Source: Escherichia coli O127:H6 str. E2348/69
GTDB lineage: Bacteria; Pseudomonadota; Gammaproteobacteria; Enterobacterales; Enterobacteriaceae
DNA: 64,000 nt
NCBI RefSeq assembly: GCF_000026545.1
Contig: NC_011601.1
Direction: 5' to 3' (one strand)
This document shows, piece after piece, positions 35,972-38,537 of this stretch. Below the pieces are notes generated by a model. That model ran no database searches, was not told where the DNA came from, and saw nothing but the letters and a program-made list of their open reading frames with translations. The position numbers and the translations under genes were made by a program. How positions within the stretch are numbered: the stretch's first letter is position 1; each line of letters begins with the position of its first letter.

Positions 35972-37696
35972 ATGCCGCGTGGCCTGGAATTACTGATTGC
36001 ACAAACCATTTTGCAAGGTTTCGACGCTCAGTATGGTCGATTCCTCGAAGTGACTTCCGGGGCGCAGCAGCGTTTCGAGCAAGCCGACTGGCATGCTGTC
36101 CAGCAGGCGATGAAAAACCGTATTCATCTTTACGATCATCACGTGGGTCTGGTGGTGGAGCAACTGCGCTGCATTACCAACGGCCAAAGCACGGACGCGG
36201 CATTTTTACTGCGCGTCAAAGAGCATTACACGCGGCTGTTGCCGGATTACCCGCGCTTCGAGATTGCGGAGAGCTTTTTTAACTCCGTGTACTGTCGGTT
36301 ATTTGACCACCGCTCGCTTACTCCCGAGCGGCTTTTTATCTTTAGCTCCCAGCCAGAGCGCCGTTTTCGTACCATTCCGCGCCCGCTGGCGAAAGACTTT
36401 CACCCCGATCACGGCTGGGAATCTCTGCTGATGCGTGTTATCAGCGACCTGCCGTTGCGTCTGCGCTGGCAGAATAAAAGCCGTGACATTCATTACATCG
36501 TTCGCCATCTGACGGAAACGCTGGGGACAGACAACCTCGCGGAAAGTCATTTACAGGTGGCGAACGAACTGTTTTACCGCAATAAAGCCGCCTGGCTGGT
36601 GGGCAAACTGATCACGCCTTCCGGCACATTGCCATTTTTGCTGCCGATCCACCAGACGGACGACGGCGAGTTATTTATTGATACTTGCCTGACGACGACC
36701 GCCGAAGCGAGCATTGTTTTTGGCTTTGCGCGTTCTTATTTTATGGTTTATGCACCGCTGCCCGCAGCGCTGGTCGAGTGGCTACGGGAAATTCTGCCAG
36801 GTAAAACCACCGCTGAATTGTATATGGCTATCGGCTGCCAGAAGCACGCTAAAACCGAAAGCTACCGCGAATATCTCGTTTATCTACAGGGCTGTAATGA
36901 GCAGTTCATTGAAGCGCCGGGTATTCGTGGCATGGTGATGTTGGTGTTTACGTTGCCGGGTTTTGATCGGGTATTTAAAGTCATCAAAGACAGGTTCGCG
37001 CCGCAGAAAGAGATGTCTGCCGCTCACGTTCGTGCCTGCTATCAACTGGTGAAAGAGCACGATCGCGTGGGCCGAATGGCGGACACCCAGGAGTTTGAAA
37101 ACTTTGTGCTGGAGAAGCGGCATATTTCCCCGGCATTAATGGCATTACTGCTCCAGGAAGCAGCGGAAAAAATCACCGATCTCGGCGAACAAATTGTGAT
37201 TCGCCATCTCTATATCGAACGACGGATGGTGCCGCTCAATATCTGGCTTGAGCAAGTTGAGGGGCAGCAATTGCGTGATGCCATTGAAGAGTACGGCAAC
37301 GCCATTCGCCAGCTTGCCGCTGCCAACATCTTCCCTGGGGATATGTTATTTAAAAACTTTGGCGTCACCCGTCACGGGCGCGTGGTGTTTTATGATTACG
37401 ACGAAATTTGCTACATGACGGAAGTGAATTTCCGCGACATCCCGCTGCCGCGCTACCCGGAAGACGAACTTGCCAGCGAACCGTGGTACAGCGTCTCGCC
37501 GGGCGATGTTTTCCCGGAAGAGTTCCGTCACTGGTTATGTGCCGACCCGCGTATTGGTCCGCTATTTGAAGAGATGCACGCCGACTTGTTCCGCGCTGAT
37601 TACTGGCGCGCACTACAAAACCGCATACGTGAAGGGCATGTGGAAGATGTTTATGCGTATCGGCGCAGGCAGCGGTTTAGCGTCCGATTCGTATAA
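35972..37696 (+). CDS. aceK: isocitrate dehydrogenase kinase/phosphatase
   Basis: 574-aa [83 protein letters not shown]... Confidence 0.95.
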
Positions 37697-37712
37697 ATCA
37701 GAGGCGAAAAAG

Positions 37713-38537
37713 TCAGCGTATTCCACCGTACGCCAGCGTCACTTCCTTCGCCGCTTTAATCACCATCGCGCCAAACTCGGTCACGCGGTCATCGGTAATA
37801 CGTGAAATCGGTCCGGAAATTGAAATTGCGGCAAACGGTTCGCGGTGCTCATCGAAAATACACGCTGCAAGGCAACGCAGCCCCAGCGCATGTTCCTCAT
37901 CGTCAAATGAATAACCCCGTTTGCGCGTTTGGGCGAGATCTTCTTTTAAATGCACAGGAGACACCAGCGTCGCGTGGGTATAGGCATGTAACCCTTTGCG
38001 GTGCAGCAGCTTCGTCACCTGTTCTTCGCTCAGTTGGGCCAGAAAGGCTTTACCCGCACCGGAAGCGTGCATCGGCAATTTACCGCCGATAGGCGCGGAC
38101 ATACGCATCAGGTGAGTACACTGTACCTGGTCGATAATAATCGCTTCGTGATTGCTTTGATCAAGCACCGCCATATTGACCGTTTCGCCAGACTCTTCCA
38201 TTAGATTGCGCAGGATAGGGTGAACAATCGCTAACAAATTACGGCTCTGGAGAAAGCTGCTACCGACCATAAAGGCGTGTGCGCCGATTGCCCAGTGACC
38301 CAGTTCGCCGACCTGACGGACAAAGCCCTGTTGCTGCATCGTGGTTAGCAGGCGGTGGGTCGTGGAATTGGGTAACCCGGCTTGCTGTGCCAGTTCCGTG
38401 AGTGCCACACTGCCATTGGATTCGGCAATCCACTCCAGTAATTTCAGGCCACGCGTTAAAGACTGAACCTGTCCAGTCGCTGGTGCGGTGGCAACGGCGG
38501 GTTTTCTGCCGCGTTTCGCGGGAATGGGTGCGACCAT
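37713..38537 (-). CDS. iclR: glyoxylate-bypass repressor
   Basis: 274-aa protein from internal Met (MVAPIPAKRGRKPAVATAPATGQVQSLTRGLKLLEWIAESNGSVALTELAQQAGLP...); convergent with aceK, stops 16 bp apart. Confidence 0.93.
   Translation of the reverse strand: MVAPIPAKRGRKPAVATAPATGQVQSLTRGLKLLEWIAESNGSVALTELAQQAGLPNSTTHRLLTTMQQQGFVRQVGELGHWAIGAHAFMVGSSFLQSRNLLAIVHPILRNLMEESGETVNMAVLDQSNHEAIIIDQVQCTHLMRMSAPIGGKLPMHASGAGKAFLAQLSEEQVTKLLHRKGLHAYTHATLVSPVHLKEDLAQTRKRGYSFDDEEHALGLRCLAACIFDEHREPFAAISISGPISRITDDRVTEFGAMVIKAAKEVTLAYGGIR

Follow-up and report, generated by a model that had tools for sequence, protein, structure and literature searches.

The arpA-less aceK–iclR junction of Escherichia coli O127:H6 E2348/69 and its probable standing as the ancestral arrangement

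In Escherichia coli O127:H6 strain E2348/69, aceK and iclR face each other tail to tail with 16 bp between their stop codons, whereas in K-12 a further gene, arpA, lies between them. The locus therefore raises two linked questions, namely what the absence of arpA says about the strain background, and whether arpA was lost from this lineage or was never there. Both were addressed in a stretch of 64,000 nucleotides (hereafter the window) that had been annotated beforehand from its letters alone. That preliminary description read the missing arpA, together with the presence of yjaA, as a sign of a B2-like background, and suspected a deletion or rearrangement endpoint at the end of aceK. Taken as a whole, the explanation that we favour, and consider very probable, is that this B2 window of E2348/69 lacks the arpA islet and that its short junction is most likely ancestral rather than the scar of a deletion. 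The two genes stand 16 bp apart because the lineage is without the 2.5-kb arpA (espL4) islet that is carried by phylogroups such as A and B1.

The window covers the rrnE-yjaA-metA-aceBAK-iclR-metH region of the enteropathogenic (EPEC) strain E2348/69, phylogroup B2. Megablast of positions 1-25000, 26000-50000 and 45000-64000 returned 100% identity and coverage to E2348/69, and the whole corresponds to positions 4395069-4459068 of NZ_LT827011.1. After E2348/69, the best matches included Nissle 1917 and CFT073, both B2 strains, at 99.1%, and the aceK–iclR junction itself is 100% identical in Nissle 1917. Since E2348/69 is a member of phylogroup B2 (PMC4464170), the identity of the window to this strain bears out the B2-like background that had been proposed.

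The final gene of aceBAK, aceK (isocitrate dehydrogenase kinase/phosphatase), occupies positions 35972..37696 on the plus strand, as given by its open reading frame and translation, by Pfam and by RefSeq annotation of the identical E2348/69 sequence. Its product has 574 aa and ends in ...SVRFV*, with the TAA stop at 37694-37696. The Pfam domains AceK_regulatory and AceK_kinase cover residues 10-564, and the variable tail of the protein lies C-terminal of the last Pfam domain position. On the minus strand, iclR (glyoxylate-bypass operon repressor; 37713..38537) encodes 274 aa, which is supported by its translation, by the Pfam domains HTH_IclR and IclR_C, and by the RefSeq coding sequence in E2348/69; its stop codon, read on the minus strand, is TGA at 37713-37715. 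A 287-aa frame reaching to 38576 is merely the longest possible open reading frame, the RefSeq coding sequence being 37713-38537. Both genes are intact with proper stops, and the RefSeq coordinates of aceK and iclR on E2348/69 match the window exactly, with no gene between them. The open reading frames and translations thus reproduce exactly the convergent stops first reported at 37696 and 37713, which enclose the 16-bp spacer ATCAGAGGCGAAAAAG (37697..37712).

A weak terminator-like hairpin, identified by consensus match only, lies in the last iclR codons on the minus strand (37714..37735), and its T-run reaches into the spacer. This single match at the iclR end was all that was found at the 16-bp junction, which holds no convincing bidirectional terminator. 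Furthermore, folding of the junction on both strands gave energies indistinguishable from those of shuffled sequence (z = -0.93 and -1.16). The 41-bp interval singled out in the preliminary description is where two convergent genes naturally end, with no function there to explain.

The K-12 arrangement was taken from C600, a K-12-lineage strain (locus L001). Its gene order is aceK, arpA on the minus strand, a 316-bp intergenic region and iclR, which agrees with the order that had been given for K-12 and places arpA between the two genes. In C600, arpA is 2,187 bp long (L001 1505-3691) and is named espL4 by PGAP; yjaC is a further synonym. That espL4 is the classical arpA follows from a 99.9%-identical gene in a PLSDB record annotated 'arpA: ankyrin repeat protein A'. 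K-12 and the window agree in the flanking genes, in their orientations and in the operon context (aceBAK, iclR, metH), and the flanks are 96-97% identical. However, where the window has 17 bp, K-12 has 2,484 bp of 37%-GC DNA. In an anchored alignment of the window with C600, identity is 100% over the 70 nt preceding 37670, homology fades past ~37688, and it returns at 37706. The empty-site segment of the window is therefore about 17 bp long (37689..37705, limits +/- 2 bp) and holds the final two aceK codons and the stop; its K-12 counterpart (L001 1517-4000) comprises arpA/espL4 and the 316-bp intergenic region, a net difference of 2,467 bp.

The difference extends into the coding sequence of aceK. 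C600 AceK has 578 aa and the tail ...SVRYGEMLF*, as against the 574 aa and ...SVRFV* of the window, so that the suspicion of a C-terminus unlike that of K-12 proved correct. The 3' end of arpA overlaps aceK by 32 bp in C600 (L001 1505-1536, the counterpart of window positions 37678-37696). In strains with arpA, its closing codons (V-R-stop) lie on the opposite strand of ancestral-type aceK DNA, and the insert in turn supplies the final six codons of aceK.

No trace of arpA was detected in the window. Searching all 64 kb with K-12 ArpA by tblastn gave a best E-value of 0.082, which is no ArpA-like sequence, and blastn with the K-12 segment gave only one 14-nt chance match in place of any remnant. 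Likewise, there is no open reading frame with Toxin_15 or Ank domains between aceK and iclR, where merely 16 bp separate the stops. The protein that is missing has, in K-12, a Pfam Toxin_15 domain (ShET2 N-terminal region, E = 1.3e-96) followed by ankyrin repeats, and is ~24% identical to ShET2/EspL2-family effectors of Shigella virulence plasmids. A search for its homologues among 5.8 billion proteins returned 18 matches, and all the named ones were E. coli. The two most divergent homologues, at 88% and 74% identity, are located at the same site with E. coli-like flanks.

The distribution of the two states was determined in the complete genomes of E. coli, 5,426 in number; all but one of them (5,425) matched the junction flanks. 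The junction is contiguous, as in the window, in 1,311 of the 5,426, and the K-12 arpA segment was matched in 4,114, never more than twice in a genome and with few exceptions on the chromosome. Together the two counts make 5,425, which is every matching genome, and the two states thus look mutually exclusive. Because the counts partition the collection, they leave no room, at megablast sensitivity, for an intact arpA kept elsewhere in the junction-type genomes. In 2,110 of the 4,114 arpA-positive genomes, coverage of the K-12 arpA segment is below 80%. Those listed as examples of a reduced arpA (e.g., E24377A) show ~75% coverage in two pieces, which implies that some 600 bp have been deleted internally, and encode products of 524-545 aa; other degraded forms are frameshifted, interrupted by IS5 or almost fully deleted. 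In many lineages, arpA seems to be undergoing decay.

One arpA-positive environmental E. coli, L083 (NZ_OZ197100.1), has iclR DNA that is only 90.9-95% identical to that of the window and of K-12, and its annotated IclR protein is identical to that of K-12 (WP_000226403.1), an unusually synonymous-rich divergence; its espL4 is frameshifted. Two divergent genomes (90.9% and 94.5%) were considered as possible cryptic clades, and this was rejected on the grounds that, in both, the flanks are E. coli-like and the encoded IclR is identical to that of K-12.

The direction of the event was approached through an AceK scan of species-representative genomes, in which the matches listed comprised E. albertii and 79 other Enterobacteriaceae loci, including Citrobacter, Salmonella, Klebsiella and Enterobacter. 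E. albertii was the only other Escherichia among the matches listed, E. fergusonii and cryptic clades II-V lying outside the comparison. An ArpA match downstream of aceK was found in none of these 80 listed loci, and iclR was convergent with aceK at a short distance in nearly all of them. The closest comparison is E. albertii NBRC 107761, which has the same AceK tail (...SVRFV*) and a likewise convergent iclR. Its junction aligns base for base with that of the window (...TTTGTATAAATCAGTGGCGAAAAGTTA... vs ...TTCGTATAAATCAGAGGCGAAAAAGTCA...), with a single substitution and a 1-bp deletion between the spacers. In contrast, the nucleotide identity of E. albertii to the window is 92.5% in aceK and 88.4% in iclR. 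Flanks at this level of between-species divergence (88-92%) indicate that the shared junction does not stem from recent transfer.

The arpA segment itself looks foreign, with 36.9% G+C in K-12 against 52.9-55.8% for aceK, iclR and metH. Four arpA-positive alleles, including those at 88% and 74% protein identity, occupy the same site and are identical at the left junction; a synonymous CAA-AGA in aceK, immediately upstream of this junction, is linked to it in the arpA-positive alleles. The right junction could be read in three of the alleles and is shared, except for one substitution in L085. A search of the ends of the K-12 segment for transposon-like features revealed no direct repeats of at least 8 nt, and the only inverted match was the 9-mer GCGTACGGT, between the native ends of aceK and iclR; thus neither a target-site duplication nor terminal inverted repeats are in evidence. 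The direction is not decided by the tail residues by themselves, given that many outgroup AceK tails start ...RYG..., as in K-12.

From these comparisons of sequence, we infer that the segment present in K-12 was gained by insertion, and only once, and that the short B2 junction is likely to be the ancestral Escherichia state. Under this proposal, the short aceK–iclR junction would have been the original arrangement, and a single insertion of foreign low-GC DNA, encoding an ankyrin-repeat protein of the ShET2/EspL family, would have replaced ~17 bp, including the aceK stop codon. With its stop lost, AceK would run on for several codons within the insert (...RYGEMLF*), and the arpA frame would end within pre-existing aceK DNA, in antisense, which would create the 32-bp overlap. 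The history within E. coli may have been less simple. In the key of Clermont 2013, the arpA-positive types reportedly include some strains of clade I; if so, a single gain within E. coli sensu stricto would be too simple, and spread by homologous recombination would be needed. Horizontal transfer of arpA alleles between phylogroups has indeed been proposed by Beghain et al. (PMC6113867). Thus the history may involve recombinational spread rather than one clean gain. No statement on the direction of the arpA event, or on the negative state as ancestral, was found in the literature covered, which did not extend to Clermont 2004.

The main alternative is that the ancestor of B2, F and G possessed arpA and deleted it, with the endpoint in the 3' end of aceK. 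The indel endpoint does fall within the last aceK codons, and to this extent the endpoint suspected in the preliminary description is real; furthermore, the decay of arpA in many lineages makes a loss plausible in principle. However, a deletion would have had to recreate the E. albertii junction, the ...SVRFV* tail and the spacer base for base, and it is the sharing of this short junction and tail with E. albertii that speaks against the deletion part of that suspicion. The window holds no remnant of the segment, all 80 listed outgroup loci are without arpA, and the base composition of the segment is foreign. The sole workable version would be replacement by an ancestral-type allele through homologous recombination, and this too would have left no scar. 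Secondary loss is therefore considered unlikely, and the ancestral reading of the short junction is retained in what follows.

For phylotyping, a strain without the islet scores 'arpA-negative' in the Clermont quadruplex, and this signal together with the yjaA amplicon yields the B2 pattern. The arpA marker is said to have been first described by Clermont in 2004. A HindIII ribotype fragment reportedly figures in the same paper, and no link to HindIII sites is claimed here; HindIII cuts the K-12 segment at three sites and the window nowhere from 26130 to 50000. Using primer sequences from PMC5322314 and PMC4322292, in-silico Clermont PCR of the window only was arpA-negative and yjaA-positive. 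The AceK.f primer site is present on the plus strand (37298..37317) with one mismatch, which the degenerate primer of EzClermont tolerates. For ArpA1.r, no site with up to three mismatches was found in the window, and accordingly no 400-bp AceK.f/ArpA1.r product is formed; the homologous position (37678-37697), compared by eye, has 8/20 mismatches. C600, as a positive control, gave the expected 400 bp. ArpA1.r sits on the aceK/arpA overlap (L001 1506-1525), and it has no site in the window because this overlap exists solely in arpA-positive strains.

The second marker, yjaA, is intact on the plus strand at 30667..31050 and encodes 127 aa (translation and RefSeq), in agreement with the presence first noted there. 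The yjaA.1b and yjaA.2b primers match exactly at 30726-30745 and 30917-30936 and delimit an amplicon of 211 bp (30726-30936). No site for chuA.1b or TspE4C2.2b occurs in the window, the chuA and TspE4.C2 loci lying elsewhere in the genome, as had been stated. In the published scheme, the profiles (- + + +) and (- + + -) for arpA, chuA, yjaA and TspE4.C2 denote B2 and (- + - -) denotes F (PMC4322292), and the interpretation of an arpA-negative, yjaA-positive pattern as B2 agrees with these. The background is B2 as judged from strain identity and the literature, the window itself lacking a complete quadruplex profile. The locus and the signal are the same as those of the arpA-negative allele of the quadruplex, with no difference (Clermont 2004/2013; ClermonTyping, EzClermont), and the arpA-less aceK–iclR junction is an ordinary, already known and standard phylotyping marker.

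Could the window be arpA-negative and belong to another group, such as F, G or cryptic clade I/II, which can type as arpA-negative and yjaA-positive when chuA is negative? The chuA and TspE4.C2 loci do lie outside the window, and arpA-less junctions occur also in genomes that match the window at the junction with no more than 94.5-97.9% identity. However, the window is identical throughout to a B2 strain, with two further B2 strains, Nissle 1917 and CFT073, next in line, and yjaA is present whereas F types as yjaA-negative. The gene yjaA is itself variable, with 2,593 genomes possessing it; that 1,037 of these have an allele at least 99% identical to that of the window also speaks against a background other than B2. 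Such a background is very improbable. An assembly artefact, in which arpA was collapsed or dropped, can be dismissed as scarcely credible, given that nothing specific points to it beyond the EzClermont report of an ECOR49 assembly without the arpA fragment that is present in an alternative assembly, and that aceK and iclR are intact with proper stops and the same junction recurs in 1,311 complete genomes that were finished independently of one another, several assemblies of E2348/69 and Nissle 1917 among them.

Two further segments downstream of iclR were observed to vary. Between metH and yjbB (42421-43462), ~1 kb contains two small hypothetical genes, with open reading frames at 42480-42800 and 42843-43292 (RefSeq WP_000590026.1 and WP_001189558.1). 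The corresponding gap is only ~220 bp in the arpA-positive L083, and the segment looks like a second small variable islet nearby. Between yjbB and pepE (~45180-47900), an IS3-like element, IS1397, is interrupted by an IS110-like element, ISEc21. In a second E2348/69 assembly, NZ_CP059840.2, the match to this part is split in two, with 93-94% coverage, and accordingly the ISEc21 insertion seems to differ between laboratory stocks of E2348/69.

The value of the locus is that the background of the EPEC prototype E2348/69 is correctly read as B2 through a marker that has been in routine use since 2013. With the short junction taken as ancestral, the reading of this marker would shift, from a loss in B2 to a gain in some lineages, and no new question is opened by it. 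What is added is a clarification, in that the K-12 state looks like the insertion of an effector-like gene, acquired horizontally, by which the end of aceK was remodelled. The arpA marker would then represent one ancient insertion in lineages other than B2, F and G, which rewrote the C-termini of both AceK and ArpA. The accompanying change at the 3' end, from stops spaced by 16 bp to an antisense overlap plus 2.5 kb, could affect termination or convergent transcription and, with it, make the regulation of the glyoxylate shunt systematically different between B2/F/G and the other phylogroups, a regulatory consequence that we regard as conceivable but unlikely.
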